Of a stretch of 64,000 bases of DNA, positions 1 through 62,989 are shown in pieces. The notes beneath the pieces were generated by a model. The model had not been told where the DNA came from. It did no database searches and saw only the letters and a program-made list of their open reading frames with translations. The stretch is from Nannocystis bainbridge (GTDB lineage: Bacteria > Myxococcota_A > Polyangia > Nannocystales > Nannocystaceae): NCBI RefSeq assembly GCF_028368995.1, contig NZ_JAQNDL010000003.1, forward strand, positions 2,752,001 to 2,816,000, read 5' to 3'. A program made the position numbers and the translations under genes. Position 1 is the first letter of the stretch. Each line of letters opens with the position of its first letter.

Positions 1-1092
1 GCTCCCGGGCAGCGCCCGCGCGACCCCGAAATCCAGCACCTTGACCACCCCGACGTCGTCGTCGTTGCGCGTCAGGAACAGGTTCGAGGGCTTGAGGTCC
101 TGATGGAGGAGGCCCGCGGCGTGGATCTGCTGCACCCCGGCGCAGGCCTGCAGGGCGTAGTCGATCGCCTCGTGGACCGGCAGGACCCGGCGCGAGTCGA
201 GGTACGCGTCGAGGTCCTCGCCGACCAGCCGCTCCATGACGATGTACGGGGCCCCATTGCCGAGGTTGCCGACGTCGAGGATCTCCGACACGTGCCTGCT
301 GCGCACCCGCATCAGCGCCCGCGCCTCCTGGGCGAACCGCTCGATCATCCCCTGATCGAAGCGGGCGTTCGGCAGCAGGAACTTGATCGCCACGCTGCGC
401 TCGGTCTGCATGTCGGTCGCCGAGACGACCACGCCCATGCCGCCGACGCCGAGGATGTTGCCCATGCGATAGCGCCCGGCCACGGTGTCGACCGGCAGCG
501 GCACGTCGGTGAAGACGTCGGAGAACACCGTCGAGCGGGCCGCCAGCAGCGCCGGGTCGATCGCCGGCGGGACAGTCGTCGTGCTCTGGATCTGGCGGAT
601 CTGCCGCCGCAGCTTGAGCTCGTTGGTGACCTGCCTGGCGAGCAGCCGCAGCGAACCGAGCTGCGCCGGCGTGATCTCCCGCGGCACGTGGTCGACGATG
701 CAGAGCGTGCCGAACACCAGACCGTCGTCCATCGTCAGCGGCACGCCGACATAGAAGCGGACCGGCGGCTCGGCCAACGTCCACGGGTTGTCGAAGAACC
801 GCGGGTCGTTGAGGGCGTCCGGGACCACCGTCGGCTGGTCGGGCTCGAGGATCGTGTGGGCGCAGAACGACAGCTCGCGCGGGCCCTCGGTGATCGCCAT
901 CCCGACCTTGGCCTTGAACCATTGACGATAGGTGTCGGTCAGAGCCACGATGGCAATGGGGACATTGCACAAATGGGCTGCCAGCTGCGCGATATCGTCG
1001 AACGCTGGCTCCGGTTCGGTGTCCAATATGCCGCAGCTCTGCAACGCTTGCAGACGCTGCCGTTCATTCGTCGGTTGAGACGGGTAGAGCAT
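1..1092 (-). CDS. GAF-domain Ser/Thr protein kinase (3' end runs off the window)
   Basis: Manual translation from ATG at 1092: MLYPSQPTNERQRLQALQSCGILDTEPEPAFDDIAQLAAHLCNVPIA...RQWFKAKVG (typical GAF N-terminus), then kinase motifs LGVGGMGVV, VAIKFL, HQDLKPSNLFL, VKVLDFG. Absent from the ORF track because there is no stop in the window. Confidence 0.88.
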   Translation of the reverse strand, partial: MLYPSQPTNERQRLQALQSCGILDTEPEPAFDDIAQLAAHLCNVPIAIVALTDTYRQWFKAKVGMAITEGPRELSFCAHTILEPDQPTVVPDALNDPRFFDNPWTLAEPPVRFYVGVPLTMDDGLVFGTLCIVDHVPREITPAQLGSLRLLARQVTNELKLRRQIRQIQSTTTVPPAIDPALLAARSTVFSDVFTDVPLPVDTVAGRYRMGNILGVGGMGVVVSATDMQTERSVAIKFLLPNARFDQGMIERFAQEARALMRVRSRHVSEILDVGNLGNGAPYIVMERLVGEDLDAYLDSRRVLPVHEAIDYALQACAGVQQIHAAGLLHQDLKPSNLFLTRNDDDVGVVKVLDFGVARALPGS

Positions 1093-2080
1093 GGCCCACT
1101 TCAGGAGATTTATTGTCCAAAAATTCGACGATCGCAATAGCCTTGCCAGGGCGGCCCCGACTGTACGACATGGACGGCGCGGGTCGGGGAGCGTGGGTCC
1201 ACGAGCCAGCAGACTGAAGCGCTGTAGGACGTGACTCGACCTCGCGCAGCGCTCATTCACTGGTACAAGCCCAGGCGCCGCGCGAGCGCCTCCGCCCGCC
1301 CGCGTGACTCGTACGACGCCAGGGCCGGCGGCGGCCGAGAATGACCGCACCCTCGCGACGGCCAGCTAACATTGTTCTTGGGTCATTCGGCCGAACTCAC
1401 GCCATGGCCGGCCTGCAATTCGCCAGCAGACTCCAGCGTGCGCGCCGGGTGGCGCGGGCCGTCTCGTTCGCGTCTGGCCATTCCGCGTCCGCACCGGTCA
1501 TGAACATTGTACCGAGCCGTCTGCGTCGGGCCCGCCGCCTGGCAATCGTACGCCTGCGCGATCGGTGGGGCTGCTGCGAGTGCGAGCCTTTTGCCGCTGT
1601 CTCGTTCGTCCTTTCTCCGCGCCCGTCCTCCTGGCGTCTTCGCCGCTGAGGCGATCGGTTCGCACCGTCTTCGCGCCTGCCGTCTCGACGGCTCGTCGAT
1701 CGCCTTTTTCCTCACTGCTGTCTTTGCGCGGGACGAGTTCGCCGAAGTCTCGTTCGTCATCTTGCGCCTGTCGTCTTTACGTCTTCTTGATCACCGTCCT
1801 CGCGGCCCGTCTTCACCGCTGACTGCGCGCCTTCATCGTTGGTTCGCCGCTGCTCCGCGCCGTGCTCGCAATCCTCGTCACCGGGCGCTGCTGCTGAGCC
1901 TGCGTCACGATCTTCACACCCGCTCGGGCCGTCCTCCGACGTCTCGCCAATTGTCGTACCTCTGCCACGATTTCGAGTGCCGTCGTCGCGCACTGCAGGA
2001 CGATCTCCGTCCTCGTCCGCCGCAGCCCGTTGCGCCTCCTCGTCGTCGCGCTTTCATCGCCGCCGGGTCGCTCATCCCAG

Positions 2081-2340
2081 TCGCGCCCGCGGCCTTCACC
2101 CTGCCGGCCTCCCTCGCCGGGCCTTCGGCGCTAACCTTCTCGCTCGTCCTTCGTCGCGCCGCGGCCTTCACAGCGCCCTGCTGGCCTCCCTCGCCCCGGC
2201 CTTCGGCGCTCACCGTCTCCCTCATTCTTCGTCGCGCCGCGGCCTTCACAGCGCCCTGCTGACCCACCTCGCCGGGCCTTCGTCCTCGCCAGCTCGCTCA
2301 TCCTTCGTCACGCCGCGGCCTTCACAGCGCTCTGCTGCCC
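2081..2340. repeat. Degenerate ~75-78 bp tandem repeat (about 4 copies, core GCCGCGGCCTTCACAGCGC)
   Basis: Core recurs near 2087, 2158, 2236 and 2312, directly downstream of the Lys/Ala-rich tail of the FGE-domain gene. Confidence 0.7.
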
Positions 2341-8283: not shown

Positions 8284-8561
8284 GGCTCGCAGAGCGGCAT
8301 GTCCCAAAGGACAGCCGTGAGCGCGCCGAGATCTTGCAGCCGCAGCGATCGCGTCGGTCGACGATCGTCTGGGGTGACACAGGAGCGGGCAGCAGCCGCG
8401 CGGGCCGTCGATCTCGAAGTCCACGCCGCCCTGTCGACCCGGCATCGGCCATCGCGGGCCCTCGGCGCCGCTCGCCCGGGCCGATGACCCCCGCGGTTCA
8501 CGCTCGCGCTGCGTGCTGACGCGCGCCGGGCGCTCGTGTATCCTCGCGCGCACCAGCGCGC

Positions 8562-13965: not shown

Positions 13966-15207
13966 TTGGTCACCCCGATCGCCCGCTACGCGCCTGCCCT
14001 CTTCGACCTCGCCCAGGACATCGTCGGCGGCCTCCCGCTGCGCCTGCTCGAGCAGTGGTGGGCCAGCGAGCAGACCGAGGCCGACGCGCTGCGCCTGCTC
14101 GCCGCCTGCAGGGTCACCGGCTACAACGTCGTCTCCGACGCCGCCGGCCTGACGCGCCTGACCGCCGAGCGCGGGTTGATGGAGATCCTCGCCATCATCG
14201 ATCAGCCCAAGGCGATCGTCCACGATCACGGACTCGCGCTCGGCGGCGAGAGCGTCGGGATCTGGGCCGCCGACAACACCCAGATGTTCTACCCCGCCGC
14301 GCTCGCGCCCGAGCGCCTGCTCGCCTCGCTGCTCGCCGTGCAGGACCAGGTCGCCCGCCGCTGCGCCATCAAGATCGGCCTCGCCGCCCACTTCGGCGAG
14401 TTCTACGGCGCCGGCGGCGGCCTGTACGGCGACGCCTCCGACGCGATCGAGGCGTTCGCCGAGGACCACGTCGCCGGCGGCGAGATCGTCGTCAGCCAGG
14501 CCGTCGTCGCTCGCCTGCCGCCCGCGCACGGCTTCACCCTCGCGCCCATCGGCGACACCGCCGCGCTCGAGCGGCTGTGGCGCGTCGTCGACGGTCCGCG
14601 CCTGTCCCTCGAGACAGCAACGACTCGGCGCTACCCGATCCCCTACTCGGACGCTTTTTATGCCGACCTCGTGCGCTTCGAGGGTCGCCTCGGCGATCCG
14701 GAGCTCGCGCGCGAGATGACCGCCAAGTACACCCGGCACAAGGTCGTGGTCCTGATCGAGCGTCACGCCCAGGACGCCGAGAGCCAGGCGATCGCGCTGT
14801 TCACCAACCTCTCGCTGTCGGCGCGGATGAAGGACGTCGGCCTGCGTCACCTCGACGGCGACCACGGGGCCGAGGTCAAGGTCAGCGGGCCGCTCGGGAT
14901 CTACACCTTCGACGATCCGGCGCGCGCCCTGGCGTTCGCCCGCGGCTTCCGCGGCGAGCTCGCGGACGCCGGCATCGATTGCCGGATCGGCGTCGACCAG
15001 GGCCCCGTGCTGGTGTTCGACCTCGCCGGCGGCGGCAAGGACATCGCCGGCATGCCGGTCAACATCGCCTCGAAAATGGCCCAGGACTGCGGCGAGTGGG
15101 GCAAGCTGTACCTCAGCGATCGCGTGCACGCCGGCCTCGAAGTCCCCGAGTTCCGCGAGCGCCGCTTCACCGTCTCGGGCCTGCAGCTGCGCGCCTTCGA
15201 GGGCTGA
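13966..15207 (+). CDS. Class III nucleotide cyclase-like protein with two tandem degenerate cyclase domains
   Basis: VVSDAAGLTRLT, KIGLAAHFGEF and GGEIVVSQAV in the first half; CRIGVDQGPV, DIAGMPVNIASKMAQ and GKLYLS in the second half. Confidence 0.75.
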   Translation: MVTPIARYAPALFDLAQDIVGGLPLRLLEQWWASEQTEADALRLLAACRVTGYNVVSDAAGLTRLTAERGLMEILAIIDQPKAIVHDHGLALGGESVGIWAADNTQMFYPAALAPERLLASLLAVQDQVARRCAIKIGLAAHFGEFYGAGGGLYGDASDAIEAFAEDHVAGGEIVVSQAVVARLPPAHGFTLAPIGDTAALERLWRVVDGPRLSLETATTRRYPIPYSDAFYADLVRFEGRLGDPELAREMTAKYTRHKVVVLIERHAQDAESQAIALFTNLSLSARMKDVGLRHLDGDHGAEVKVSGPLGIYTFDDPARALAFARGFRGELADAGIDCRIGVDQGPVLVFDLAGGGKDIAGMPVNIASKMAQDCGEWGKLYLSDRVHAGLEVPEFRERRFTVSGLQLRAFEG

Positions 15208-18118: not shown

Positions 18119-18432
18119 GCGGGAAACCTAGCCAAGCCCTGCCGGGCACGCCACCGGGCTCATGCGATTCGCGCCACCACCCGCGCCCCGTGTTCGCCCG
18201 CCCTCCGTCGATCACATCCGGTGCCGTGAAGCAGGCCCACGAAATGCGGCGCTCGTCACCAGTTCGCGCAGTTGCGCGCACCTGTCCCTTCGGACATCCG
18301 AGTGGGCCCGATCGCAACGCTCGCATGGGTAAAAGCAACGTGTTTCAACCGACCTCGTCGGCAGTCGCCGGGGCCGGCACCCACGTTCGCGGGCCCGATC
18401 TCTCCGGCACCTCGCTCGTCGCCGCCAGCGAG

Positions 18433-29123: not shown

Positions 29124-30259
29124 CGCGGCGAGCGCTGGTGGCCCTCGCCGCCCTGCTCGCCTGCGGCCAGCCTCAAGGGACAGGTCCCAACAAACCTGCC
29201 CCGAGCGACATGTCCTCAAAGACAGCCCCGGAGCCGGCCCCCGCGCCGGAGCCGGAGCCCGAGCGCGCGGCCCCGCCGGTGCGCAAGGACGGCACGATCT
29301 ACGCCGAGACCCAGCAGATGGGCACCCGCGTCTCGATCAACGTCCACGTCGGCGAGCGCGCCCCGGCCGAGGCGGGCGCGGCGATCGAGGCCGCGTTCGC
29401 GGAGATCGAGCGTGTCGAGCAGATCATGAGCGAGTGGCGGCCGAGCAGCGAGCTGTCACAGCTCAACGACGGCGCCGGCGGCCCGCTGCGCCCGCTGAGC
29501 GTCGATCTCTTCGACATCCTGCAGCGCAGCAAAGAGATCGCCCAGGCCACCGGTGGCGCCTTCGATCCGACCTTCTACAGCGTCGGCCAGCTGTGGAAAT
29601 ACGACCCCGGCAGCCGCCCGCCGACGCGCGAGGCGATCCTCGAGAAGCTGCCGCTGGTCGACTGGCGCTCGATCGAGCTCGACCCCGCCACCCGCAGCGG
29701 TCGCCTCGCCAAGCCCGGCATGAAGATGGGCCTCGGCGCGATCGCCAAGGGCTACGCGGTCGACCGCGCCTCGACCATCCTGCGCGAGCGCGGCTTCCCC
29801 GATCACATCGTCGAGGGCGGCGGCGACACCTTCGTCTCCGGCACCAAGGCCGGCAAGACCTGGATGGTCGGCATCCAGCGCCCCGACGGCCCCGGCTCGA
29901 TCGCCGCCATCCCGGCCCGCGACCGCGCCGTCGTCACCTCGGGCGACTACCAGCGCTTCATCGAGTTCGAGGGCGTCCGTTACTCGCACATCCTCGACCC
30001 GCGCACCGGCTTCCCCGTGCCCGAGGATCGCAGCCTGCAGAGCATCACGATCCTCGCGCCCAACGCCACCGACGGCGACGCCTACGCCACCGCCGTCGCA
30101 GTCATGGGCGTCGACGCCGGCCTCGAGTTCATCACCTCGCACCCTGGCCTCGACGCCGCGCTCATCACTCGCACCGGCGAGCTCCGCGTCACGCCCGAGC
30201 TGGCGAAGATCCTCGTCTACCCGCAAGACAAGCCCGCTCCGCCGCCGCCGGCCCCGTGA
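29120..30259 (+). CDS. apbE: FAD:protein FMN transferase lipoprotein
   Basis: LLAC lipobox; MGT, TGGAFDPT, GAIAKGYAVD, VVTSGDYQR, YSHILDPRTG and DAYATA. Confidence 0.95.
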   Translation: MTRRALVALAALLACGQPQGTGPNKPAPSDMSSKTAPEPAPAPEPEPERAAPPVRKDGTIYAETQQMGTRVSINVHVGERAPAEAGAAIEAAFAEIERVEQIMSEWRPSSELSQLNDGAGGPLRPLSVDLFDILQRSKEIAQATGGAFDPTFYSVGQLWKYDPGSRPPTREAILEKLPLVDWRSIELDPATRSGRLAKPGMKMGLGAIAKGYAVDRASTILRERGFPDHIVEGGGDTFVSGTKAGKTWMVGIQRPDGPGSIAAIPARDRAVVTSGDYQRFIEFEGVRYSHILDPRTGFPVPEDRSLQSITILAPNATDGDAYATAVAVMGVDAGLEFITSHPGLDAALITRTGELRVTPELAKILVYPQDKPAPPPPAP

Positions 30260-30520: not shown

Positions 30521-32878
30521 GTGACCGAGCACGGCCGTCGCAGCGAGTCCGACGGGGTCGACGAACCCCCGGCCGGCGCGCGTCCGGGCGCAGCGGGCTC
30601 GGCCGCCACCGCACCTGTCTCTTCGGCCAGCCCCGTCCACGCCGGCACCGATCCTGTCCTTTCGGCCAGCTCCTCCGACATCACCGAACCTGTCCCGGCG
30701 GCCAGCTCGATCGACGCCACCGTCGGCACCATGCTCGAGCCGGAGCAGGACCCTGGCGGCGGCGAGCGCACGCGCGTGCGCCTCGTCAGCGGCCGCGTCG
30801 TGCCCGGCACTCGCTATCGCCTGGTCCGCTGGCTCGGCGAGGGCGGCATGGGCGTCGTCTACGAGGCCGAGCACGTCGACATCGAGCGCAAGGTGGCGCT
30901 CAAGGTCCTGCGCTACGACCTCAGCCGGCGCGCCGAGATGGCCGCCGTGTTCCGCGCCGAGGCCCGCGCCGCCAGCCGCACCGGCCACCCCAACATCGTC
31001 GAGATCTACGACTTCGGCGAGCTCCCCGACGGGCGGCTCTTCATCTGCATGGAGCTGCTCGACGGCAAGGACCTCGTGCCCGCCACCGAGTCCGAGGTGC
31101 GCCCGCCGGCCGAGGTCCTCGCCATCTTCCGTCAGCTCTGCAAGGCCCTGGGCGCCGCCCACAAGGCCGGCATCGTCCACCGCGACATCAAGCCCGAGAA
31201 CATCATCCTCGTGCGCAAGGCCGGGCGCGACGGCGTCGTCAAGGTCGTCGACTTCGGCATCAGCGCCGTGCTCGGTCAGGAGCGGCGCGGCAAGATCGCC
31301 GGCACCCCGCACTACATGGCACCCGAGCAGATCCGCGGCCTCGCGTTCGACGGTCGCCTCGACATGTACGCGGCCGGCTGCGTCGCCTTCGAGCTGCTCA
31401 CCGGCAGCCCGCCGTTCCCCAACGAGGCGCTCGAGGAGGTCCTGAACGCCCACGTGCACCAGCCGCCGCCCTCCTTCCGCCAGGCCCGGCCCGACCTCCA
31501 GCTGCCCGCCGCGCTCGAGCAGGTCGTCCTGCGCTGCCTGTCCAAACAGCCAGACGAGCGCTACGCCGACATGCACGAGCTCGAGGCCGCCCTGTGCGAG
31601 GCGCAGATCGCCTGCGGCATGCGGACCGCCTGGGACGACCTGCCGCTGCCCGAGTGCGCCCCCGAAAGGCTCGAGCGCCTGCGCGCCCGCATGCCGAGCC
31701 CGCAGGCCGTCCCGCGCCGGTGGCTGTGGCCCATCGTCGCGGGCGCCTCGCTCGTCGCCGCCGGCGTCGCCATCGCCGTCGCCCTGCGCACCCCCGACCC
31801 GCCCGCGGCCGAGCGCTCGCGCATCGACGCCCTCGCCGAGGAGGCCCTCGTCGCCGCCAGCCAGACCCTCTACGTCGCCCCGCCGCCGGACCAGCCCGAC
31901 GTCCCGACCGCCTACACCAAGGTCCTCGAGCTCGAGGCCATCGGCGGCCCCGCTGCCGGCCTCGCCGACGCTCGCGCCGGCGAGCTGCGCGGCCAGTTCG
32001 CCGCCGGCCTCGTCAACCTCGGCGACAAGTACTGGGAGGTCGCCGGCGCCCGCCCGTTCGCCGTCGAGTATTACATCTGGGCCCGCGCCTTCGACCCCGA
32101 TCATCGGCGGGCCATCGAGCGCAGCGGCATGACCCCCGGCGCCTTCACCCTGTTTCAGGAGAAGGCCCGCAGCGGCAGCTGGTCGCTCGGCGAATTGCAG
32201 GCCCTCGGACTCGTCAGCGCCCTCGCCGACGACGACGCCGAGCGCCGGCAGAAGCGCACCCTCGTCGCCCACCAGAGCGCCTCGCAGCTGTCGATCAGCC
32301 AGCACCTCGACCTCGACGCCGGCCTCCGCGGCGCCGGCATCGAGCTGCCGCAGAAGCCCGCCGCCAAGCGCTCCGAGCCCGAGCCGCCGCCCGTCGAGCC
32401 GCCGCCGCAGCCCGAGCCCGCACCTGTCCTCGAGGACAGCCCCGCCGAGATCGCCGACGCCCCACCCGTCGCCGACGTCGAGCGGCCGAAGAAGGCCACC
32501 CTCAAGTCGAACCGCGACCCAGCCAAGGCCAAGCGGCTGGCCGACGACGGGGTCATCGCCCTCAAGGCCGGCCGGCGCAACGACGCCGAGAGCCTGTTCC
32601 ACCAGGCCATCTTCTACGACAACCGCAACGCCCGCGCGCTGATGGGCCTGTCGGACATCTACTTCGACACCGGCGCCAAACAAAAGGCCGTGCAGTTCGC
32701 CGAGCTCGCCGTCGAGGCCGCGCCGCAGTCGAAGTCGTACCACCTCAAGCTCGGCGACGCCTACTTCGTCGTCCTGCGCTACCGCGACGCCCTGACCCAT
32801 TACGAAAAGGCGCGCGACCTCGGCGAGGACGGCGCTCAGGGCCGCATCGACAAGGTCAAGAAGCTGATCGCACCATGA
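30521..32878 (+). CDS. Membrane Ser/Thr protein kinase with C-terminal TPR
   Basis: LGEGGMGVVY, VALKVL, HRDIKPEN, DFG and GTPHYMAPE; TM segment WLWPIVAGASLVAAGVAIAVAL; C-terminal TPR. Start uncertain (GTG 30521 follows a TAGACT hexamer). Confidence 0.9.
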   Translation: MTEHGRRSESDGVDEPPAGARPGAAGSAATAPVSSASPVHAGTDPVLSASSSDITEPVPAASSIDATVGTMLEPEQDPGGGERTRVRLVSGRVVPGTRYRLVRWLGEGGMGVVYEAEHVDIERKVALKVLRYDLSRRAEMAAVFRAEARAASRTGHPNIVEIYDFGELPDGRLFICMELLDGKDLVPATESEVRPPAEVLAIFRQLCKALGAAHKAGIVHRDIKPENIILVRKAGRDGVVKVVDFGISAVLGQERRGKIAGTPHYMAPEQIRGLAFDGRLDMYAAGCVAFELLTGSPPFPNEALEEVLNAHVHQPPPSFRQARPDLQLPAALEQVVLRCLSKQPDERYADMHELEAALCEAQIACGMRTAWDDLPLPECAPERLERLRARMPSPQAVPRRWLWPIVAGASLVAAGVAIAVALRTPDPPAAERSRIDALAEEALVAASQTLYVAPPPDQPDVPTAYTKVLELEAIGGPAAGLADARAGELRGQFAAGLVNLGDKYWEVAGARPFAVEYYIWARAFDPDHRRAIERSGMTPGAFTLFQEKARSGSWSLGELQALGLVSALADDDAERRQKRTLVAHQSASQLSISQHLDLDAGLRGAGIELPQKPAAKRSEPEPPPVEPPPQPEPAPVLEDSPAEIADAPPVADVERPKKATLKSNRDPAKAKRLADDGVIALKAGRRNDAESLFHQAIFYDNRNARALMGLSDIYFDTGAKQKAVQFAELAVEAAPQSKSYHLKLGDAYFVVLRYRDALTHYEKARDLGEDGAQGRIDKVKKLIAP

Positions 32879-35394: not shown

Positions 35395-35404
35395 TTCTGC
35401 GCTC

Positions 35405-37993
35405 ATGGATCCCCGCCACGGTACCGCCCACCGGTTCACGACCCGTTCCTACGGCGGCTTCGGCCGCATCGCGCAGCCGCTGATCCGGGTCCGCTTGCGC
35501 CGGGACGCCTCTCGCGGCTGGTCCAGCGCCATCGAGGCGCTCGTCGATACTGGCGCCACCATCACGCTCGTGAGCAGCGACTTCCTCGCTGCCGTCCCCG
35601 ATCTCGGGCCGGCCATTTTCGGCCCCGAGTTGGCGTGGCAGACCGCCGTTCACGAGCGCGAGAGCTGCCGCGCCATCTCACTCGACCTGCAGCTCGGCCA
35701 CGAGCGCGACCACCCGTCGCTCGTGCTCGAGCGGGCTCACGTGTACGTCACCTCGAGCCGGCTCGTCGCCCCGATCCTGCTCGGCCAGCGCGGTGTGCTC
35801 GAGCGGGTCGGTCTCGTCCGGCGGATCCCCTCCGCCACTGTCGACGACCATCACGACCGCGTCGACGCCCTCGCTCCCGAGGCGCTCGCCCTCGCCAAGG
35901 CCGCGGGTCTCCCGTGGGTCGAGGTCTTCGTGCGTCACTGGCACCTGCAGAGCCGCGTCCTGCACCGCTGCCAGGGCGACATGGCCCTCCGCGAGGCTGT
36001 CGCCCTCGTCGACTACGCCCACGGCGAGGCTGCCCGCGGCTGTCCTCAGGCCGTGTGCACCGTGCAGGACCTCGCCGCCTGTTACTCCCAGGTCGACGGC
36101 CCCGGGTGGGCACGCGAGCGGGCCGACGTCTCGCGCGAGACCCTCGGTCGCATCGACCCCACCTGGCCCTGCTTCACCTGCATCAGCTGTGAGCACGCTG
36201 CCGCCTTGCGCGAGCAGGGCGACCCCCAAGCCGCCCTCGATTTCCTCGAAGCCCAGCAGAAGCAGCTCGTCGCTGTCGGCCAGGGGCGCGAGCGGACCTC
36301 GCTCCTGCCCGAGCGGATCTCCGACCTCATCTTGCTCGGCCGCATCGAAGAAGCCCTCGCCGTCTGCCAGGACGCCATCGCCAACGGTCGGCGCGACGAG
36401 GGACAGCGGCGGGCCCGGCAGATCGACCTCACGCGGATCTACGCCCGCCTCGGCCGCCGCGACGACGCCATCCGCCACCTGCCTGCCCTCGAGGACATCC
36501 TCCCCACCCCCAGCCATTACGAGCCCTACACCGACGCCCTCGTGCACCTGGTGAAGCTCGACGCCTGGCCCAACGACCTCGCCCTCGGTCGGCTGCTCCA
36601 GCGGTTTGTCGCCCGTCTCCGGCTCAACGGCTCCAACCGCCTCCCGTTCGACATCGCCGCCGCCGCCGCCCTCCTCGCCATCGAGCGCGGCAGTCCGGCC
36701 GTCGCCGCCCTCCACCTCGCCGCCATGGAGCGGTTCGCCGCTCGCCTCAACCGCCCTGCCGGCGCCCCCGAGCGCGTCGCCGCCCTTCGCCTGTCTCTCG
36801 AGACAGCCCTCGCCCAGCCGCGCCCTGACGGCTCCGGCGACACCGACGACCCCGAGCAGCTCCTGCGCCGCTGCCTCGACGCCGGCCCCGCGCCTGACCT
36901 CGAGCGAGCCCGGCATCACGCCCTGCTCTTGCTCGACCTCGGCTTCGCGCTCGAGGCCGCCGACCTGCTCGAGCGCCACGTCGACGCTCACCCTGACGAC
37001 GACGACGCCGTCGACCTCCTCGAGGCCGCCTATCGCCACGCCGAGGACGACGACCGTCACCGCGCCCTCGGCGAGCGCCTGCTCGCCAGCGACGACCCTG
37101 CCAGGCAGCGCCGCGGCCGGTGGGTCGCCGCGCGCCGGCACACCCGCGCGCGCGACTGGGACGCCGCCAATCGCCTGCTCGAGCGCCTCGCCGCCGACCC
37201 GGCCGACGCCCTCGCCGCTCGCCTCGCCCACGCCCGCAACGCCTACCAGCAGCGCGACTGGCCCACCCTCTTGCGGCTCCTCGACGAGGCCCTGCAGCTC
37301 CAGCCCGACCTCTCGCCCGGCGCCCACGACTGGGACCGCATGGTCGCCGCCACCCTGCTCGGCGCCTGGGATCGCGTGCGTCACAGCGCTGCTCGCCTCG
37401 ACATGCCGATCGACGGCGAGGGTCCCATCGACCAGCGCTGGGAGCTGTGCCGGATCCGCGTCGAACACCCCAGCGGCAAGCGGCAGGACCTTTTCGCCGC
37501 CCGCACCGGCCCCGTGACCGCGCGGATCCTCCAGGTCTCCCGCATCGACCAGCCGCAGCGCCTCTACGACCGCATCGTCTTCGACGCCGCCCCGGTCGGC
37601 GAGCAGGAGGGCGACGACCGCCCCGTCTACGTCTACGCCGAGGTCGAACCGCTGCAGCGCGCCGACTACCGCGCCTTCGCCATCGACGGCGCTCACCCTG
37701 GCGAGCCCGTGCTCACCGAGCTGCGGCAGGTCGTACAGGCCCACCGCGGCAGCTTGCAGGTCCAGAGCGGCGACGCTTACCGCCTCACCTCGCCCGCTGG
37801 CGACGAGCGGCCCGGCCTCTACGCCTTCACCGCCTTTGGCCCCGACACCGACCTCCGGATCGTCTCCGACGAGCTCGCCGCGGTCGTCGGTGCCCTCGAC
37901 GACCCGCTCGTATGGCCCGAGCTCGCCGCCGCTGCCGGGGACGAGACCCGCGCCGGACAGCACCGCGAGCTCGCCCGCGCCTGGGCGCTCTGA
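35405..37993 (+). CDS. Retropepsin-like aspartic protease domain fused to a TPR-like helical protein
   Basis: N-terminal PLIRVRL...EALVDTGATIT...PILLGQRG (clan AA signature); continues in frame into helical repeats (PWVEVFVRHWHLQSR, WPCFTCISCE, RTGPVTARI). Confidence 0.8.
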   Translation: MDPRHGTAHRFTTRSYGGFGRIAQPLIRVRLRRDASRGWSSAIEALVDTGATITLVSSDFLAAVPDLGPAIFGPELAWQTAVHERESCRAISLDLQLGHERDHPSLVLERAHVYVTSSRLVAPILLGQRGVLERVGLVRRIPSATVDDHHDRVDALAPEALALAKAAGLPWVEVFVRHWHLQSRVLHRCQGDMALREAVALVDYAHGEAARGCPQAVCTVQDLAACYSQVDGPGWARERADVSRETLGRIDPTWPCFTCISCEHAAALREQGDPQAALDFLEAQQKQLVAVGQGRERTSLLPERISDLILLGRIEEALAVCQDAIANGRRDEGQRRARQIDLTRIYARLGRRDDAIRHLPALEDILPTPSHYEPYTDALVHLVKLDAWPNDLALGRLLQRFVARLRLNGSNRLPFDIAAAAALLAIERGSPAVAALHLAAMERFAARLNRPAGAPERVAALRLSLETALAQPRPDGSGDTDDPEQLLRRCLDAGPAPDLERARHHALLLLDLGFALEAADLLERHVDAHPDDDDAVDLLEAAYRHAEDDDRHRALGERLLASDDPARQRRGRWVAARRHTRARDWDAANRLLERLAADPADALAARLAHARNAYQQRDWPTLLRLLDEALQLQPDLSPGAHDWDRMVAATLLGAWDRVRHSAARLDMPIDGEGPIDQRWELCRIRVEHPSGKRQDLFAARTGPVTARILQVSRIDQPQRLYDRIVFDAAPVGEQEGDDRPVYVYAEVEPLQRADYRAFAIDGAHPGEPVLTELRQVVQAHRGSLQVQSGDAYRLTSPAGDERPGLYAFTAFGPDTDLRIVSDELAAVVGALDDPLVWPELAAAAGDETRAGQHRELARAWAL

Positions 37994-40821: not shown

Positions 40822-42168
40822 TCAGGGCGGATCCGACACGCTCGGGTGCCGGGCCGCCGCCAGGGCCGCGCGGCAAGCCGCCAGCGCCCCGTCGCGCGCG
40901 TCGAACATGGCGAAGCGCTCGCGCGGCTGGACCGCGCCGACGATCAGCGTCGCGGCCATCACCTTGACCGGGTCGCCGCCGGCAAGCAGGGCGACGAAGA
41001 CCAGGTGGGGGTCGGCGAACAGCTGGACGATGTGGCGCCGGATCTCGGGGCCCGGCATGTTGGCCTCGTCGAGCTCGACGAGCAGGGTGTACGGCGCGCC
41101 GTCGCTGGTCAGGCGCGTCATCTCGGCGCGCATCACCTGGACGCTGAATTCGCTCGGCAGCGGGATCTCGTGGTAGCGGATCACCCCGGGCTCGAGCAGC
41201 GCGATCCGGGCGCGGATCGCCCCCACGTCGGCGATCCCGCGCGGGGCGGCGCCCGGGTCGAGCGCGCGCAGCAGGTCGGCCATGCTCGCGTGCCGTCGCC
41301 CGGGCTCGGGGTCGAGGCCGCGGACGATCGCCGCCTGCAGCCAGCCCGGCACATCGCTGTCCTCCGGGACAGGTCCGACGTCGCGCCCGCGGATCGCCCG
41401 CAGACGCGCCTGCAGGTCGCGCGACGGGAACGGCGGGGCGGCGTACAGCGCCTCGTACAGCGCGACGCAGAGCGCGAACTGATCCGCCGCCGGGCCGCCC
41501 GGGTCGCCGGCGAACAGCTCCGGGGCCATGTAGCCGGGGGTCCCGGCCAGCCCGCCCCCCGACGCCTCGCCGACCCGCCGCGCCAGGCCGAAGTCGGCCA
41601 CTCGCACCCCGCCGTCGCGCCCGATCAGCACGTTCTGCGGCTTGAAGTCGCGGTGGCACAGCCCGATCGCGTGCGCGGCCGCCAGCCCGCGCCCGGCCGC
41701 GAGGAACGTCTCGACGATCGCCGGCCACGGCCGCCGCGTGCCCGCGAGCCACTGCGCGAGCGTCTCGCCGTCGACGTGCTCCATCACCACGAACAGCCCG
41801 CCGCGGCCGTCCGGCAGGGTGTAGGTGCCGACATCGTGGACCGTGAGGACGTTCGGGTGCGACAGCCGGGCCATCGCCTGCGCCTCTCGCAGCAGCAGCT
41901 CCGGCGCGGCGGCCTCGCGGTCCTGGCGCATCAACTTGATCGCTACCCCACGCTCGAGCCGAGGATCGTGGGCGAGGTAGACCGCCCCGAACCCGCCGAC
42001 GCCGAGCAGCCGCTGCAGCTGGTAGTGCCCGAGCATCACCGGCCCGGCGGCGCCGAACATCCGCTCCTCGACGTGGCGCAGCAGCAGCGCCGCCTCGACC
42101 GGATCACCGTCGCCGAGGCCCGTCAGGGCGAGCCCTGTCGTCGTCGTCCCGGCGGTGGTCGGACCCAT
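40822..42168 (-). CDS. Ser/Thr protein kinase with C-terminal STAS/SEC14-like alpha/beta domain
   Basis: LGVGGFGAVY, VAIKL, HRDFKPQNV, DFGLAR and GTPGYMAPE; the C-terminal ~125 aa are homologous to 43743-44159. Confidence 0.9.
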   Translation of the reverse strand: MGPTTAGTTTTGLALTGLGDGDPVEAALLLRHVEERMFGAAGPVMLGHYQLQRLLGVGGFGAVYLAHDPRLERGVAIKLMRQDREAAAPELLLREAQAMARLSHPNVLTVHDVGTYTLPDGRGGLFVVMEHVDGETLAQWLAGTRRPWPAIVETFLAAGRGLAAAHAIGLCHRDFKPQNVLIGRDGGVRVADFGLARRVGEASGGGLAGTPGYMAPELFAGDPGGPAADQFALCVALYEALYAAPPFPSRDLQARLRAIRGRDVGPVPEDSDVPGWLQAAIVRGLDPEPGRRHASMADLLRALDPGAAPRGIADVGAIRARIALLEPGVIRYHEIPLPSEFSVQVMRAEMTRLTSDGAPYTLLVELDEANMPGPEIRRHIVQLFADPHLVFVALLAGGDPVKVMAATLIVGAVQPRERFAMFDARDGALAACRAALAAARHPSVSDPP

Positions 42169-42865: not shown

Positions 42866-42878
42866 GCGCGCCGCGACC

Positions 42879-49279: not shown

Positions 49280-49370
49280 AACATGTCCTCGAAGACATTC
49301 CCTATCGAACATGTCCTCGATGGCATGCTCTTACCGACATGACCTTTCGAGCATGCCCGTTCGTACAGGC
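49280..49370. repeat. 14-bp-phased array of the TGTC-N6-GACA motif (about 6 units)
   Basis: CA(T/G) cores at 49282, 49296, 49310, 49324, 49338, 49352 and 49366, an exact 14-bp period. Confidence 0.85.
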
Positions 49371-52105: not shown

Positions 52106-52549
52106 TCACATGTCCGTAGCGACATGCCCGACGGGACATGTCGCAACGGACACATCATCTCTCCGTCCCCGCGCCTGCAAGTCCGCCAGCACCTTCCCCG
52201 CCCACCTCATGAACGCCTGCCCTCGCGCCGCCGTCGGGTCGACCTTCGCCTCCACGCGCAGCCACGCCGCGTCGGTCCGCAGCGAAAAACTCAGCCCTGT
52301 CCCGTCGCTGCTCGGCATCGTCGCCGCGAACGCCTTCGCCCCGCGCTCCGCCTGCGCGGCCGCCTCGGGCGATCCGAAGCGCAGGCCCACGTGGAGCGGC
52401 ATCACCTGCGGGCTGCCGGAGGCGCCCATCGTCGTCGCCAGCGTGAAGCCCGTGCTGCTGGGCGCTGTCGTGGCCACCGTCCCGTAGTCGCGCAGCCCGG
52501 CGCCCCACGCCCCCAGCGACCGGTCGACCGCGGCCACCATCTTCACCAT
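52106..52549 (-). CDS. Hypothetical protein (start uncertain; 3' end runs through the 14-bp array)
   Basis: ORF with plausible codon usage; no recognisable motif. Confidence 0.4.
   Translation of the reverse strand: MVKMVAAVDRSLGAWGAGLRDYGTVATTAPSSTGFTLATTMGASGSPQVMPLHVGLRFGSPEAAAQAERGAKAFAATMPSSDGTGLSFSLRTDAAWLRVEAKVDPTAARGQAFMRWAGKVLADLQARGRRDDVSVATCPVGHVATDM
52108..52152. repeat. 14-bp-phased array of the TGTC-N6-GACA motif (3 units)
   Basis: TGTC-CGTAGC-GACA / TGCC-CGACGG-GACA / TGTC-GCAACG-GACA at 52111, 52125 and 52139. Confidence 0.88.
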
Positions 52550-55070: not shown

Positions 55071-55101
55071 GCATGTCCCGAGCGACATGTCCGAACAAAC
55101 C
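55071..55101. repeat. 14-bp-phased TGTC-N6-GACA doublet
   Basis: GCA-TGTC-CCGAGC-GACA-TGTC-CGAACA-AACC. Confidence 0.8.
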
Positions 55102-55103
55102 CA

Positions 55104-55609: not shown

Positions 55610-57294
<1,685 letters not shown>

Positions 57295-57298
<4 letters not shown>

Positions 57299-59797: not shown

Positions 59798-60181
59798 ATG
59801 GGTAACCGACTCTTCGTAGGCAACCTCTCCTTCCAGATCACCGACAGCGACCTCCAGCAGGCGTTTCAGCCGTACGGCGCGGTCAAAGAGGTCAAGCTGA
59901 TGACCGACCGCGAGACCGGGCGCTCGCGCGGCTTCGCGTTCGTGGAGATGACGAGCGACGCTGACGCCAAGCGCGCCATCGAGGCGCTTCACGGCGCGTC
60001 CCTCGACGGCCGCCCGCTGCGGGTGTCCGAGGCGGAAGACCGTCGCTCGGGCGGCGGCGGCGGCGGCGGTGGCTACGGCGGTGGTGGCGGCGGCGGCGGT
60101 TACGGCGGCGGCGGCGGTGGCGGCGGTTACGGCGGCGGCGGCGGTGGTCGCAAGCCGAACCGTGGCGGCGACCGCTACTAG
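59798..60181 (+). CDS. RRM RNA-binding protein with Gly-rich tail
   Basis: RNP2 LFVGNL, RNP1 RGFAFVEM and GGGGY repeats. Confidence 0.96.
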   Translation: MGNRLFVGNLSFQITDSDLQQAFQPYGAVKEVKLMTDRETGRSRGFAFVEMTSDADAKRAIEALHGASLDGRPLRVSEAEDRRSGGGGGGGGYGGGGGGGGYGGGGGGGGYGGGGGGRKPNRGGDRY

Positions 60182-60190
60182 GCATCGAGT

Positions 60191-61581: not shown

Positions 61582-61630
61582 CAATGACCCGAAGGACATG
61601 CCCTTTCGAGCATGTACTTTCGAGCATATC
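61582..61630. repeat. 14-bp-phased array of TGTC-N6-GACA variants (3 units)
   Basis: TGAC-CCGAAG-GACA / TGCC-CTTTCG-AGCA / TGTA-CTTTCG-AGCA at 61585, 61599 and 61613. Confidence 0.8.
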
Positions 61631-61636
61631 AGCGCC

Positions 61637-62989
61637 CTACTTCGAGTTGGCGGCGCCGAACGTCGGCTTGCAGCCCGACGACCAGCTGCCTGCCGGCCCG
61701 TCGGCGATCCGGCAGAACGACAGCGCGGCCTGGTCGGCGCCGTAGGACACCTGCGACACGGGCGTGAGGTCGGGCTTCAGCAGCGTCACCGTGTCGCCGT
61801 TGGAGCTGAGGCCGAAAGGGTGCTGGCCGGCCAGATCGCCCTTGGCGACCACCATGAACTGCCCCGGCATCAGCTTCGCCCCGGCGGCGAACACCAGCTT
61901 CTCGAGGTCGTCGACGGGGTCGTAGGTCGCGTCGAACGCCTGGTCGGTGAGGATCCACCCCGCCATGTCGAGCGGGTCGGCCCCGGCGTTGAACAGCTCG
62001 ATCTCGTCGTTGGTCGACTCGAGCTCGTTGATCGCCGCCGCCAGGTCCGACATGCACATCGAGGTGTCGAGGATGCACTGCGGCGTGCAGGCCATCGCCC
62101 CGCCGGTGAAGCCCCGGTCGGCGCACTTGGCCGCCCCGACGTCGAGGCCGTCGCAGGGCTCGCCGCCCTCGCGCACCCCGTTGCCGCAGATCGTCAGCGC
62201 CTCGGTGTTGGCCGCCCCGAGGGTCTGCTCGCAGTGACCCCACGAACCTGTCCCATCGGGCAGGCGGCACCACGACACCATCGCCGTCACCCCCTCGACC
62301 GTCAGCGCGTCGATGACCGCGTCGTCGCCGTCGACCAGCGTCAGCGTCTCCTCGCTGCTCGAGCTGATCCCGAACGGCAGGTCGCCCTCGCCCGACATCA
62401 CGTCGAGCTCGACCAGCACCATCCGCTCGCCGGGCATCAGCGTCGTCCCCGCGGGGAACACGTAGGTCTTGTCGGCCGGCATCGTCGAATCGTCCGACAG
62501 CCGCCAGCCGGACAGGTCGGCCGGCGCCCCGCCGGCGTTCAGCAGCTCGATCGCGTCGCCCTTGCCGGCGTACGGCCCCGACTCCGCCCCCTTCGAGGTC
62601 AGCTCGTTGAGCGCCACCAGCCACTCGGCCGGCTCGCCCACGCAGTTCGAGACGTCGAGCGACAGGCAGTCGGGCGCGCACGCCAGCGGCCCCGAGAAGC
62701 CCGGGTCGACGTCGGCGCACGACATCCCGCCGAGCTCCGCCCCGTCGCACAGCTCGTCGCCCCCGACGATCCCGTCGCCGCACGCCGGCGCGCCCGGCCC
62801 CTCCGAGGTCACCGAAGGCCCGTCGCCGCTGCTGCTGCTGCCGTCCGGCCGGTCGCCGCCGCTGCTGCCGTCGTCCGGCGAATCATCGGTGGCGGAAGCA
62901 TTGTTCATACCGCCGCTCGGGTTGCAGCCGACCAGCGCCGGCCCCGCGATGCACAATAGTGACAGAGACACCCCTACGATTCGCCGCAT
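61637..62989 (-). CDS. Lamin-tail-domain (x2) lipoprotein with Cys-rich repeats
   Basis: LVGC lipobox; two INEL...IEL.N.G..P.DL.GW.L.D...FG(I/L)SS..ET(L/V)TL units; CGDG...E.CDG repeats. Confidence 0.9.
   Translation of the reverse strand: MRRIVGVSLSLLCIAGPALVGCNPSGGMNNASATDDSPDDGSSGGDRPDGSSSSGDGPSVTSEGPGAPACGDGIVGGDELCDGAELGGMSCADVDPGFSGPLACAPDCLSLDVSNCVGEPAEWLVALNELTSKGAESGPYAGKGDAIELLNAGGAPADLSGWRLSDDSTMPADKTYVFPAGTTLMPGERMVLVELDVMSGEGDLPFGISSSSEETLTLVDGDDAVIDALTVEGVTAMVSWCRLPDGTGSWGHCEQTLGAANTEALTICGNGVREGGEPCDGLDVGAAKCADRGFTGGAMACTPQCILDTSMCMSDLAAAINELESTNDEIELFNAGADPLDMAGWILTDQAFDATYDPVDDLEKLVFAAGAKLMPGQFMVVAKGDLAGQHPFGLSSNGDTVTLLKPDLTPVSQVSYGADQAALSFCRIADGPAGSWSSGCKPTFGAANSK

Follow-up and report, generated by a model that had tools for sequence, protein, structure and literature searches.

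Why does a 14-letter interrupted palindrome, TGTC-N6-GACA, recur so often in a 64-kb stretch of DNA (the window) from the soil bacterium Nannocystis? The initial annotation listed 11 perfect copies, and all of them are present (8300, 14603, 18283, 29211, 32425, 36792, 41358, 49284, 52111, 52139 and 55074). Its rough chance estimate was 0.4 perfect copies, and 100 dinucleotide-preserving shuffles of the window gave a mean of 0.61 and a maximum of 3 and in no case reached 11. The 14 one-mismatch places that it named are also real, but the list is incomplete, as the window holds 38 such units. Including the perfect copies, there are 49 units with at most one mismatch against 18.3 expected from the shuffles, and many of the one-mismatch copies in the window may therefore be due to chance. 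A two-mismatch copy at 54039, which reads TGTCCCGAAGTCCA, was correctly called. Three features were overlooked at that stage, i.e., the in-phase abutting arrays, the position behind stop codons and the occurrence in related genera.

The motif is indeed genome-wide, as had been proposed: the 11.05-Mb genome holds 3663 perfect copies, which are found on all five contigs with no gradient in density between origin and terminus. The other spacings of TGTC-Nn-GACA (n=0-5 and 7-19) have only 29-175 copies each in the whole genome, with 78 at n=5, 120 at n=7 and the minimum of 29 at n=8. One-mismatch units likewise peak at n=6 (8008 vs 1421-3428 at other spacings genome-wide), and the GCCA variant is about five times commoner at n=6 than at n=5 or 7. 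The enrichment persists under a codon-aware null model that leaves codon usage and amino acids unchanged. In the inner 80% of 7045 coding regions (7.18 Mb) taken from a crude GC3-based ORF call, so that the coding and gap classes carry error, n=6 occurs 1094 times against a mean of 87.8 and a maximum of 92 in five synonymous-codon shuffles, i.e., an approximately 12-fold enrichment, while real and shuffled counts are similar at all other spacings from n=0 to 12. The half-site TGTCC is barely enriched by itself (12351 copies genome-wide vs about 10250 expected from a hand estimate based on composition, with about 2750 of them within dyads), and the suggested likeness to uptake sequences therefore does not hold in the usual sense. 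The flank rule (A/C)TGTC...GACA(G/T) seen in the window holds throughout the genome, with A 0.58 and C 0.37 at base -1 and T 0.59 and G 0.35 at base +14, and the fuller form of the motif is R-C-M-TGTCC-YYRR-GGACA-K-G-Y. No published description of TGTC-N6-GACA was found in the literature, in agreement with the initial view that the motif had not been characterised.

The copies are distributed unevenly and follow gene 3' ends, which does not fit the earlier suggestion of a HIP1-like element. Arrays start within a few bases past stop codons, and the last 100 nt of 7044 genes contain about 70 sites compared to about 1700 in the first 100 nt past the stop. Among gaps of 50-200 bp, 40-43% of the convergent ones carry TGTC-N6-GACA (63-75% if one mismatch is allowed), whereas the divergent promoter gaps are nearly devoid of it (2-4%); in counts reconstructed from rounded fractions, a perfect site is present in 217/522 convergent vs 10/310 divergent gaps (p=4e-40). 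Long same-strand gaps show this bias too, with 137 sites no more than 100 nt from the upstream stop and 29 equally close to the next start. A 33-kb cluster of ribosomal protein genes and rpoBC has zero sites inside and two at its end. About 1100 copies fall inside genes, where they occupy fast-evolving linkers (near-flank identity 0.78 vs 0.89-0.90 for coding DNA generally). When oriented by the upstream gene, TGTC-N6-GGCA outnumbers its mirror image 173 to 76, with no comparable skew at other spacers or in base composition. As this polarity is tied to the direction of the upstream gene, the arrays appear to be transcribed.

Within arrays, the 14-bp dyads abut head-to-tail and in phase in runs of 1-8 units, which also accounts for a count of 984 at the n=20 spacing genome-wide. 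The N6 dyad is the basic unit: an N6 partner with at most one mismatch is present for 88% of GACATGTC junctions, whereas 68% of N6 units lack a perfect abutting half. The 3663 copies contain 854 different spacers, the commonest making up 2.9%, which argues against spread by copy and paste. An all-vs-all BLAST of 2699 loci revealed no shared larger backbone; all matches were between arrays, with a median of 61 bp. A recognition site for a dimer, as first proposed, thus fits better than a mobile repeat. Local tandem duplication does occur: C3:1085845 has 8 near-identical units, and 19.5% of pairs show direct similarity of their spacers at 42 bp (vs 4.9%).

Spacing is rigid and the spacer sequence is free, as the initial annotation had stated, and the two halves vary independently. 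Watson-Crick pairs at the mirrored spacer positions 4:9, 5:8 and 6:7 match the expectation from column frequencies (2165/2091, 1209/1222 and 987/963 observed/expected). At arm pair 3:12, single variants are enriched 4-6 times, while compensatory doubles stay at background (C:G 295 vs 298, G:C 428 vs 435), and no compensatory base-pair changes were found in arms or spacer. Spacers of adjacent units are not complementary, and arrays with swapped spacers fold no worse than real ones, which are even slightly less stable. What is constrained is base identity, not pairing.

The window illustrates these patterns at individual sites, to which no strand is assigned. The solitary perfect unit TGTCCCAAAGGACA (8300..8313) lies within the crude ORF 7462-8568(-), which has no Pfam match, and 249 nt upstream of a phosphoribosyltransferase gene (8562-9137(+)). 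With its flanks it folds as RNA to -15.5 kcal/mol, and no alignment to the related genomes G010 or G001 was obtained. Another solitary perfect unit (14603..14616), inside ORF 13966-15207(+) with only a weak cyclase-domain match, has conserved arms and one spacer change in G010 and G001. A third one (18283..18296), 165 nt past the start of ORF 16709-18118(-) in a long gap between same-strand genes, is perfect in both genomes with a different -1 base or spacer; its RNA fold is weak (-5.8 kcal/mol, z -1.1). Two abutting units, TGCC...GACA followed by the perfect 29211 copy (29197..29224), fall in a coding linker of an ApbE-family lipoprotein gene, where the ApbE domain begins at residue 67 of ORF 29120-30259. 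The array is at the same place in 5/5 Nannocystis relatives, but there the other unit is the perfect one.

In the kinase gene 30275-32878(+), three TGTC-N6-GCCA one-mismatch units (30616, 30655 and 30691; 30616..30704), 39 and 36 bp apart, lie in the N-terminal low-complexity part and each code P-V-x-x-A-S. A perfect unit (32425..32438) falls in the linker between the kinase and TPR domains, and its CCTGTCCYCGAGGACA is kept in 5/5 relatives amid a proline-rich stretch rich in insertions and deletions. The perfect unit at 36792..36805, inside ORF 35162-37993(+), codes L-S-L-E-T; its arms are invariant across 5/5 relatives, while the spacer occurs in four versions and G005 has a single amino-acid replacement (E to G). 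For the perfect unit at 41358..41371, near residue 348 at the kinase domain end of a Ser/Thr kinase gene (40822-42414(-)), the syntenic loci compared have no counterpart. The convergent gap array at 49284..49325 begins 19 nt past the stop of an FAD-binding monooxygenase gene and consists of a perfect, a degenerate and a one-mismatch unit (49312), with a TRF period of 28 and an RNA fold of -17.3 kcal/mol; in G010 this stop codon is likewise followed by a unit, whose spacer differs. Three abutting units (52111..52152; perfect, TGCC variant, perfect) lie in a gap with no alignment to G010. They fold to -30 kcal/mol because units 1 and 3 are almost reverse complements of each other, and this strong fold is an exception among arrays, not the rule. 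Finally, a perfect unit is followed by a degenerate one at 55074..55101, and the matching place in G010 holds a two-unit array after the stop of an extra small gene that is absent here.

Sites are present at orthologous places in other Nannocystis genomes, and synteny with other species extends over 430 kb. A perfect site is found in the orthologous gap of G010 in 20/35 cases where this genome has one vs 8/97 otherwise. The coding alignments with G010 give an identity of 0.927 for the arms and 0.780 for the near flanks (p=1e-10), and 31/48 sites are still perfect against an expected fraction of 0.43 (p=0.003). Compared to isolated TGTC/GACA tetramers, however, the arms are not significantly more conserved in coding DNA (0.927 vs 0.900, p=0.09) or in intergenic DNA (0.862 vs 0.864, p=0.9), and these alignments thus offer mixed evidence for possible selection on the arms. 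Only 19/70 intergenic sites are alignable between species, and the arrays turn over, as the number of units differs between species. Sites arise and decay through point substitution at fixed length (e.g., site 2717653). The enrichment is restricted to three genera of the family, which have the same flank preference and carry 548-3663 (g1), 623-705 (g2) and 283-586 (g4) copies per genome. In the family's remaining 14 genera, each genome carries 16-186 copies, compared to 9-73 for reversed-pattern controls, and none of 300 further genomes sampled from the phylum is enriched (2-236 copies each). TGTC-N6-GACA is best read as the building block of palindrome arrays at gene ends, a family specific to this lineage.

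With a probability of roughly 45%, our tentative best reading is that each unit is a duplex-DNA site for a putative symmetric dimer that marks where transcription units end. A protein dimer with two-fold symmetry would read the unit on double-stranded DNA, where the two 4-bp cores, 10 bp apart centre to centre, would be separated by one helical turn, and in-phase abutment with a period of 14 bp would allow 1-8 dimers to line up. The arrays occupy apparently transcribed DNA directly behind stops and fill convergent gaps, and the most likely job of such a protein would be to mark or insulate transcription-unit ends. The bound protein might act as a roadblock that stops or slows RNA polymerase, or as a topology or nucleoid anchor where converging transcription piles up supercoils. 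No binding protein was found, and the nucleoid or chromosome-architecture protein of the initial annotation is therefore likewise a putative binder. A scan of 20 ORFs beside the rare promoter-side sites yielded only one ArsR-type and two TetR-type regulators and singled out no candidate, and no PadR-domain gene was found.

The units may instead work in RNA, which we consider rather unlikely. Transcribed units would then be 3'-UTR elements forming short stem-loops (UGUCC-NNNN-GGACA), alone or stacked or paired over long range in arrays, which would stabilise mRNA 3' ends, aid termination, or bind an RNA-binding protein or RNase, as REPs do in enterobacterial mRNAs. The location immediately after stop codons and the exclusion from promoter gaps agree with this, as does the sense-strand polarity at pair 3:12, where the A12>G variant keeps a U.G wobble. 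However, the other three wobble-type changes are symmetric (14 vs 13, 66 vs 53, 7 vs 8), and the loop sequence has no strand preference (CCGAAG 31 vs CTTCGG 29). Stable folds are possible for multi-unit arrays (about -19 kcal/mol with 3 units, -34 with 5), and the two window arrays at 49284 and 52111 fold well (z -5.2 and -6.0), but the folds of single units are weak (-5.8 to -8.2 kcal/mol, z -1.1 to -2.6), and spacer swapping, as described above, costs no stability. About 41% of units lack a Watson-Crick match at the fifth pair (4:9), leaving a 4-bp stem with a 6-nt loop, the loop is never 3 or 5 nt long, and covariation is lacking in arms and spacer. With a canonical terminator-like site in only 481/7043 genes, another 3'-end signal would be welcome, and 55 sites do belong to hairpin-plus-T-run terminators, although co-occurrence is at chance level (127 vs 112 expected).

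Still less probable is a functionless by-product of a sequence-specific drive, in which a methyltransferase- or repair-linked bias, or an uptake or recombination preference, recreates the dyad, which then piles up where it is least harmful, i.e., in 3' gaps and protein linkers. The bipartite N6 dyad form is typical of TRD-type methyltransferase sites, HIP1 offers a precedent, and the codon-aware enrichment within genes, the fast-evolving linkers, the gain and loss through substitution and the turnover of unit number all fit such a drive. A barely enriched half-site does not, and neither the in-phase arrays nor the extreme bias to the first 100 nt past stops, even in long gaps, is expected from drive alone. 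Moreover, HsdS genes do not track the motif, being present in 13/17 genera and absent from the motif-rich genome G011. We regard it as very improbable that the units are selfish REP/REPIN-like elements moved by a dedicated transposase, or that a tyrosine recombinase uses the 7-6-7 dyad as its core site for shuffling gene cassettes. Recombinase core sites do have a 6-bp non-conserved centre between inverted arms, as here, and the bias to 3' ends and convergent gaps, the local tandem duplications and one example of an array bordering a gene presence/absence difference (55074) point the same way. Yet the assembly, which is 90.5% complete, yielded no Y1/RAYT transposase, no 2-unit array was detected in 2.9 million viral contigs, the 14-bp units are far shorter than REPs, and the many spacers, the lack of a shared backbone and the origin of new sites by point substitution are equally at odds with mobility. 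Thousands of active sites would also scramble the chromosome, while the synteny noted above holds.

The duplex-DNA site that we favour resembles several known systems in part. Like intrinsic terminators, the units are palindromes behind stops that would work both ways in convergent gaps. However, their 4-5 bp stem has a fixed sequence instead of being longer, GC-rich and of any sequence, and most units lack a T-run. The DUS of Neisseria and the USS of Haemophilus are oriented 9-12-mers enriched as single copies. They reach a density of about one copy every few kb, in coding as well as non-coding DNA, and often form inverted pairs behind genes. TGTC-N6-GACA shares this frequency, both DNA classes, the inverted pairs behind genes and the presence in related genera, but only the exact-spacing dyad is enriched in Nannocystis, and the units form in-phase arrays.

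REP/BIME/REPIN elements with RAYT transposases in Enterobacteria and Pseudomonas (PMC3116915, PMC3337134) are likewise short palindromic units in hundreds to thousands of copies, extragenic, clustered behind genes and between convergent genes, and vertically persistent within a lineage. REPs conserve about 20-40 nt, whereas the Nannocystis unit has 14 bp with 8-10 constrained letters and a free centre, and is arranged head-to-tail in one phase. The number of spacer variants implies that the Nannocystis copies are not replicas; they also lack stem covariation and a detectable RAYT gene, and many lie inside genes. HIP1 (GCGATCGC) of cyanobacteria, a hyper-abundant palindrome tied to orphan methyltransferases (PMC4390886, PMC5861425, PMC13756078), is similarly lineage-wide, over-represented under codon-aware nulls, present in coding and non-coding DNA and conserved between species, and a function is established for neither motif. 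However, HIP1 is a contiguous octamer whose cognate methyltransferases are known and which is spread quasi-periodically over the genome, while TGTC-N6-GACA is bipartite, has a free spacer of 6 bp, occurs in tandem arrays and is concentrated immediately after stops, and comparing HsdS genes across 17 genera revealed no methyltransferase link. The nearest characterised myxobacterial site is that of MrpC, a CRP-family protein of Myxococcus xanthus with the site TGTYN8RAC and 1608 ChIP-seq sites (PMC4320627). Both motifs are myxobacterial, share the half-site letters TGTY / RACA and have many genomic sites, and we infer a dimer for TGTC-N6-GACA as well. They differ in spacing, 8 in MrpC against 6 here, where n=8 is the rarest, and MrpC sites lie in promoter regions, whereas TGTC-N6-GACA avoids promoter gaps.

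A genome-wide signal of the 14-bp dyad TGTC-N6-GACA is real and very strong in Nannocystis bainbridge, and in Nannocystis and two related genera its in-phase arrays mark the 3' ends of genes. The window holds 11 perfect copies, each exactly where the initial annotation had placed it, while 100 dinucleotide-preserving shuffles gave a mean of 0.61 and a maximum of 3. The 14 one-mismatch places listed in that annotation all exist, but they are only part of the 38 such units in the window; the copy annotated at 54039 indeed has two mismatches. Units with at most one mismatch number 49 in total (38 one-mismatch and 11 perfect) against 18.3 expected, so chance may account for many of the single-mismatch copies.

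Across the whole genome (11,048,555 bases in 5 contigs, 71-72% G+C), the arms TGTC and GACA occur 3663 times with a spacer length (n) of 6, compared with 29-175 times for each n of 0-5 and 7-19. The 984 copies at n=20 represent two abutting units. When 12 distinct tetramer orderings were combined with their reverse complements at N6, the runner-up reached 220 copies, and one-mismatch units are likewise most frequent at n=6 (8008 versus 1421-3428 at other spacers). The initial annotation had pointed to a fixed spacer of 6, and this enrichment holds under a codon-aware null consisting of 5 synonymous-codon shuffles, restricted to the inner 80% of each of 7045 crude coding regions, 7.18 Mb altogether. 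Coding interiors contain 1094 copies at n=6 versus a mean of 87.8 (maximum 92) after shuffling, and for all other spacers in the range n=0-12 the real and shuffled counts are about the same. Chance or base composition as the cause of the motif is ruled out by the shuffles, the spacer counts, the orderings and the codon-aware null. A peptide repeat was also rejected, as the coding copies are spread over all three frames (542, 404 and 134) and the arms survive an amino-acid change.

The placement of the motif was analyzed with a crude GC3-based gene model, whose 7045 ORFs make up 77% of the genome. Sites outside these ORFs make up 57% of the total, in 23% of the genome. Summed over all genes, about 70 sites fall in the final 100 nt and about 1700 in the first 100 nt past the stops, beginning 2 nt after the stop. 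Among gaps of 50-200 bp, a perfect unit is found in 40-43% of the convergent, 8-21% of the same-strand and 2-4% of the divergent ones, and a unit with at most one mismatch in 63-75% of the convergent and 6-15% of the divergent gaps. With counts rebuilt from rounded fractions, this corresponds to a perfect site in 217/522 convergent versus 10/310 divergent gaps (p=4e-40). In the 641 long same-strand gaps, 137 sites are found up to 100 nt past the upstream stop, compared with 29 in the 100 nt before the next start. The 33-kb cluster of ribosomal-protein genes and rpoBC has 0 sites within it and two at its end. Among sequencing runs, no RNA library of this organism was found, only metatranscriptome contigs with small shares; their coverage at the ribosomal-operon end represents the ribosomal genes of relatives and is uninformative on the array. 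A density map against ori and ter, as proposed in the initial annotation, displayed no gradient on any contig: full 250-kb bins hold 33-130 sites on both GC-skew signs, density is unrelated to that sign, and ori/ter polarity was discarded.

Within the window, the 3-unit array at 49284 starts 19 nt past a stop in a convergent gap of the crude model. The sites at 29211, 32425, 36792 and 41358 lie within long ORFs or genes whose domains are supported by Pfam, most of them in linkers, and those at 18283 and 55074 lie outside the crude ORFs. The copies at 52111 and 52139 are located at the 3' end of a 147-codon ORF which has no Pfam match and is possibly not a real gene. The kinase gene with site 41358 belongs to a stretch (40745-47004) without a long megablast match in the syntenic parts of G010 and G001, two genomes used for comparison, and the stretch appears to be genome-specific or rearranged. 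The array at 55074 looks promoter-side here because a small gene is missing from this genome: opposite 54941-55108, G010 has an extra small gene (positions 523199-523737 of its concatenated loci), and the two-unit array after its stop matches array 55074. This single example may point to a location of arrays at the boundaries of gene gain or loss. Genome-wide, the motif occurs in 24 divergent gaps, and a Pfam scan covered 20 of the ORFs that flank them, namely the 12 shortest plus 8 others. Among these 20 there were one regulator of the ArsR type, two of the TetR type and one weak transposase-HTH match, with no conclusive binder. One rare promoter-side perfect unit is found at G000:C2:1650836-1651109, on the same contig as the window, in a divergent gap of unusually high AT content, flanked by a SnoaL-like gene and the gene of an ArsR-type regulator.

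Several other features of the window were observed. An ORF at 53493-54059 (minus strand), whose 5' end includes the two-mismatch copy at 54039, matches the NpmA family of 16S rRNA (adenine1408-N1) methyltransferases (PF24675, E 1.7e-48, 165 bits), which is known for aminoglycoside resistance. A 66-bp tandem repeat in 8 copies (28160-28689, 83% matches) is contained in ORF 26442-29123 on the plus strand, which has an N-terminal class-I methyltransferase domain and a repetitive Ser/Gly/Pro-rich tail and is located directly upstream of the ApbE gene. Nested tandem repeats with periods of 39/78/154 bp and 72-82% matches, unrelated to the 14-bp motif, occur at 2099-2760 in the crude ORF 2322-3728 (minus strand). 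Further downstream there is a gene pair at 55490-58662 (plus strand) that carries the planctomycete-type domains DUF1587/1595/1592/1588/1585 (PSD/PSCyt) and then DUF1552 (HXXSHH). At 60050-60144, about 32 copies of GGC form a run with a higher-order period of 27 bp.

The motif logo has the core TGTCC-YYRR-GGACA, preceded by R-C-M and followed by K-G-Y, with a faint echo 14 bp away on both sides. Spacing between perfect copies peaks at 14 bp (144 pairs), 28 bp (88), 42 bp (61) and 56 bp (36), i.e., the units abut in phase. Starting from each perfect copy, in-phase neighbours matching at least 6 of the 8 arm letters were chained, which resulted in 3435 arrays genome-wide, holding 5714 units. Most are single units (2106), followed by arrays of two (817), three (282), four (96), five (78), six (40), seven (14) and eight units (2), and the biggest span convergent gaps from stop to stop. 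The basic unit is the N6 dyad rather than the GGACATGTCC junction; 1973/2237 GACATGTC junctions have an N6 partner at no more than one mismatch, and 2477/3663 dyads have no perfect abutting half. In the GACA arm, the second letter is tolerant (1874 copies of GCCA and 1346 of GGCA) and the third nearly invariant. The 3663 copies have 854 distinct spacers, the most frequent accounting for 2.9%. On contig C3 of the same genome, eight near-identical 14-bp units (TGYCCCTGAGGTCA) at G000:C3:1085845-1085956 look like a recent tandem expansion, and G000:C3:716814-717037 contains a 42-bp higher-order repeat in four copies with one perfect unit per copy. Direct similarity of spacers is in excess at 42 bp, which together with these repeats suggests that three-unit blocks duplicate.

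Sampling of related genomes delimits the lineage range of the motif. Its 20-mer form is present in 9/10 other genomes of the genus, the exception being a 64%-complete genome, and the ApbE of the window is 91-92% identical to its nearest named records, which come from four Nannocystis species. Copies of the 14-mer per genome (reversed-pattern control in brackets) are 548-3663 (25-37) in 4 genomes of the window's own genus, including its own, 623-705 (21-109) in 4/4 genomes of the genus here called g2, and 283-586 (9-50) in 4/4 genomes of genus g4. The remaining 14 genera of the family have 16-186 (9-73), and 300 further genomes sampled across the phylum have 2-236 (1-179). The M...K flank preference is found in 47-61% of copies in g2 and 72-85% in g4, versus 25% by chance. 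At orthologous places, 5/5 relatives retain the window's coding sites, while spacers and flanks vary.

Conservation was compared with controls over 445 kb aligned to G010 by BLAST; an earlier test based on global alignment gave a stronger contrast between arms and flanks, and we rely on the weaker BLAST-based result. At 48 aligned coding sites, identity to G010 is 0.927 in the arms, 0.780 in the near flanks (p=1e-10), 0.847 in the far flanks and 0.900 in isolated TGTC/GACA tetramers (p=0.09). The corresponding values at the 19/70 intergenic sites that could be aligned are 0.862, 0.703, 0.832 and 0.864, with 0.684 for the intergenic spacers. Coding sites are still perfect in G010 in 31/48 cases versus 0.43 expected from the tetramer control (p=0.003). 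Gap orthologues in G010 have a perfect site in 20/35 cases where the gap in the window's genome has one versus 8/97 otherwise (p=1e-8), and at orthologous gaps the number of units often differs between the two genomes. The overall picture is of sites that stay at their positions amid rapidly evolving DNA, are gained and lost through substitution and multiply by local tandem duplication, for which the eight near-identical units on C3 and the spacer similarity at 42 bp are the evidence. The case for purifying selection on each arm letter is moderate rather than strong.

With a probability of roughly 0.45, we read the dyad as a putative duplex-DNA site of a symmetric dimer that acts at the ends of transcription units. 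What is maintained at the two cores, which lie one helical turn apart, is the identity of the bases rather than their pairing, the signature of such a dimer on duplex DNA. With unit positions numbered 1-14, Watson-Crick pairs at mirrored spacer positions are observed 2165 times versus 2091 expected at 4:9, 1209 versus 1222 at 5:8 and 987 versus 963 at 6:7. For the arm pair 3:12, single variants are enriched 4-6x over other spacers, while compensatory doubles are at background (C:G 295 vs 298, G:C 428 vs 435, A:T 116 vs 84); the table for arm pair 1:14 is confounded and was set aside, as GTC/GAC stay in codon phase at n=6 but lose it with control spacers of 4, 5, 7 and 8. Spacer orientation is independent of gene direction. 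A 3'-UTR element read at the RNA level is rather unlikely, since covariation is absent and real arrays fold no better than those with random spacers. Single units fold at -5.8 to -8.2 kcal/mol (z -1.1 to -2.6) and 3-unit arrays at -17 to -30 kcal/mol, and real arrays of 2-5 units are slightly worse, by +0.6 to +2.0 kcal/mol, than arrays given random spacers from the pool. Long array-wide hairpins, suggested by 52111-52152, are not general, as random-spacer arrays fold no worse. Between the spacers of neighbouring units no complementarity was found, with at least 5/6 letters matching in 4-7% of pairs versus 4.4% at random.

The RNA element does gain from a skew among variants: behind genes in same-strand context, TGTC-N6-GGCA, which keeps a U.G wobble, is found in the sense direction 173 times versus 76 for its mirror TGCC-N6-GACA (p=7e-10), a skew absent at other spacers and in base composition. 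Perfect units also tend to occupy the position in an array closest to the stop (flanks C..T 105 vs A..G 78), and the polarity of units is shown to be tied to transcription. However, the other three wobble-type changes have no skew (14 vs 13, 66 vs 53 and 7 vs 8), and therefore the polarity is about equally well accounted for by a mutation bias linked to transcription or by a polar roadblock geometry. A sequence-specific drive that maintains the motif, with individual sites having no function, seems improbable to us. It is highly improbable that the motif is a mobile element or recombination site. Genome-wide, no larger repeat backbone was found around the arrays, and a larger mobile element or MITE was ruled out since nothing outside the arrays is shared.

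The dimer reading can be extended to a lineage-specific DNA-binding protein that delimits transcription units in Nannocystis and the two sister genera via rows of dimers on the arrays, an extension that we regard as speculative and unlikely to hold in full. In-phase rows of the dyad right after stops would load a row of dimers, which would halt or insulate RNA polymerase coming from either side and largely substitute for hairpin-plus-U terminators. If true, a bacterium would here possess a terminator or insulator code that is DNA-encoded, factor-dependent and genome-wide, and a dedicated protein reading the arrays would mean a new genome-wide way of marking bacterial gene ends. The host group includes some of the largest bacterial genomes and is of natural-product interest. 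Mechanism aside, the motif predicts transcription-unit ends, being carried by 63-75% of short convergent gaps, and it provides candidate terminator or insulator parts for myxobacterial engineering as well as a REP-PCR-like typing handle. The DNA and RNA readings are cleanly testable because spacing, arms and spacer can be mutated separately.

Compared with known systems, an intrinsic terminator has a stable GC-rich stem followed by a T-run, whereas single units of the motif fold weakly. A terminator-like site, defined as a stable hairpin and then at least 4 T within 300 nt of the stop, is present behind only 481/7043 crude genes, so canonical intrinsic terminators seem to be rare in this 71% G+C genome. 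Only 55 motif occurrences lie inside hairpin-plus-T4 structures, and co-occurrence of motif and canonical terminator is at chance (127 vs 112). The operator consensus of the PadR family, ATGT-N8-ACAT, provided a lead that was dropped, as the PadR domain (PF03551) had 0 matches in the window's genome and was found in 14/14 control genomes. In form, the bipartite N6 dyad would fit a type I or TRD-type methyltransferase target. The specificity subunit HsdS (PF01420) is present in 13/17 genera regardless of the motif and was not found in the motif-rich genome G011; it is an unlikely reader since its distribution fails to track the motif. Sites of the CRP-family protein MrpC consist of TGTY/RAC(A) half-sites 8 bp apart in promoters (PMC4320627), while the Nannocystis motif has a spacing of 6 (3663 copies vs 29 at n=8) and avoids divergent gaps. 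No Rfam family reached its gathering score in the window, and no 2-unit array was found in viral contigs. A search of the literature, supplementary files apart, returned no published description of TGTC-N6-GACA, and the signal is apparently undescribed so far.

The motif also resembles known repeated palindromes. Like REP/REPIN elements with their RAYT transposase, the motif is extragenic and biased to gene 3' ends and convergent gaps (40-43% versus 2-4% of divergent gaps). However, REP/REPIN elements are replicas of one whole element with a stem kept by pairing, whereas the motif has 854 spacers, no backbone outside the arrays and no covariation at the spacer pairs or 3:12, and its spacers add nothing to folding. 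No match to RAYT (Y1 transposase, PF01797) was found in the window's 90.49%-complete genome, and 6/14 control genomes were positive. The initial annotation had suggested a HIP1-like or uptake-sequence-like element. Like HIP1, the palindrome exceeds the codon-aware null (1094 vs 87.8 in coding DNA) and occurs in both coding and non-coding DNA, but the quasi-even spread of HIP1 is replaced by a strong 3'-end bias, with more than half of the sites confined to the small share of the genome outside ORFs. HIP1 is linked to cognate orphan DNA methyltransferases; for the present motif, the survey of methyltransferase components covered HsdS, which does not follow its distribution. Uptake sequences (DUS/USS) are single oriented motifs enriched as monomers; here the half-sites alone amount to 12351 (TGTCC) and 11418 (GGACA) genome-wide versus about 10250 predicted from composition by a hand estimate, and this surplus arises because the dyads themselves contribute it. 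Collectively, the motif belongs to the known kind of hyper-abundant short palindromes and adds a further member alongside REP, HIP1 and uptake sequences, while differing from each of them in the properties that define it.
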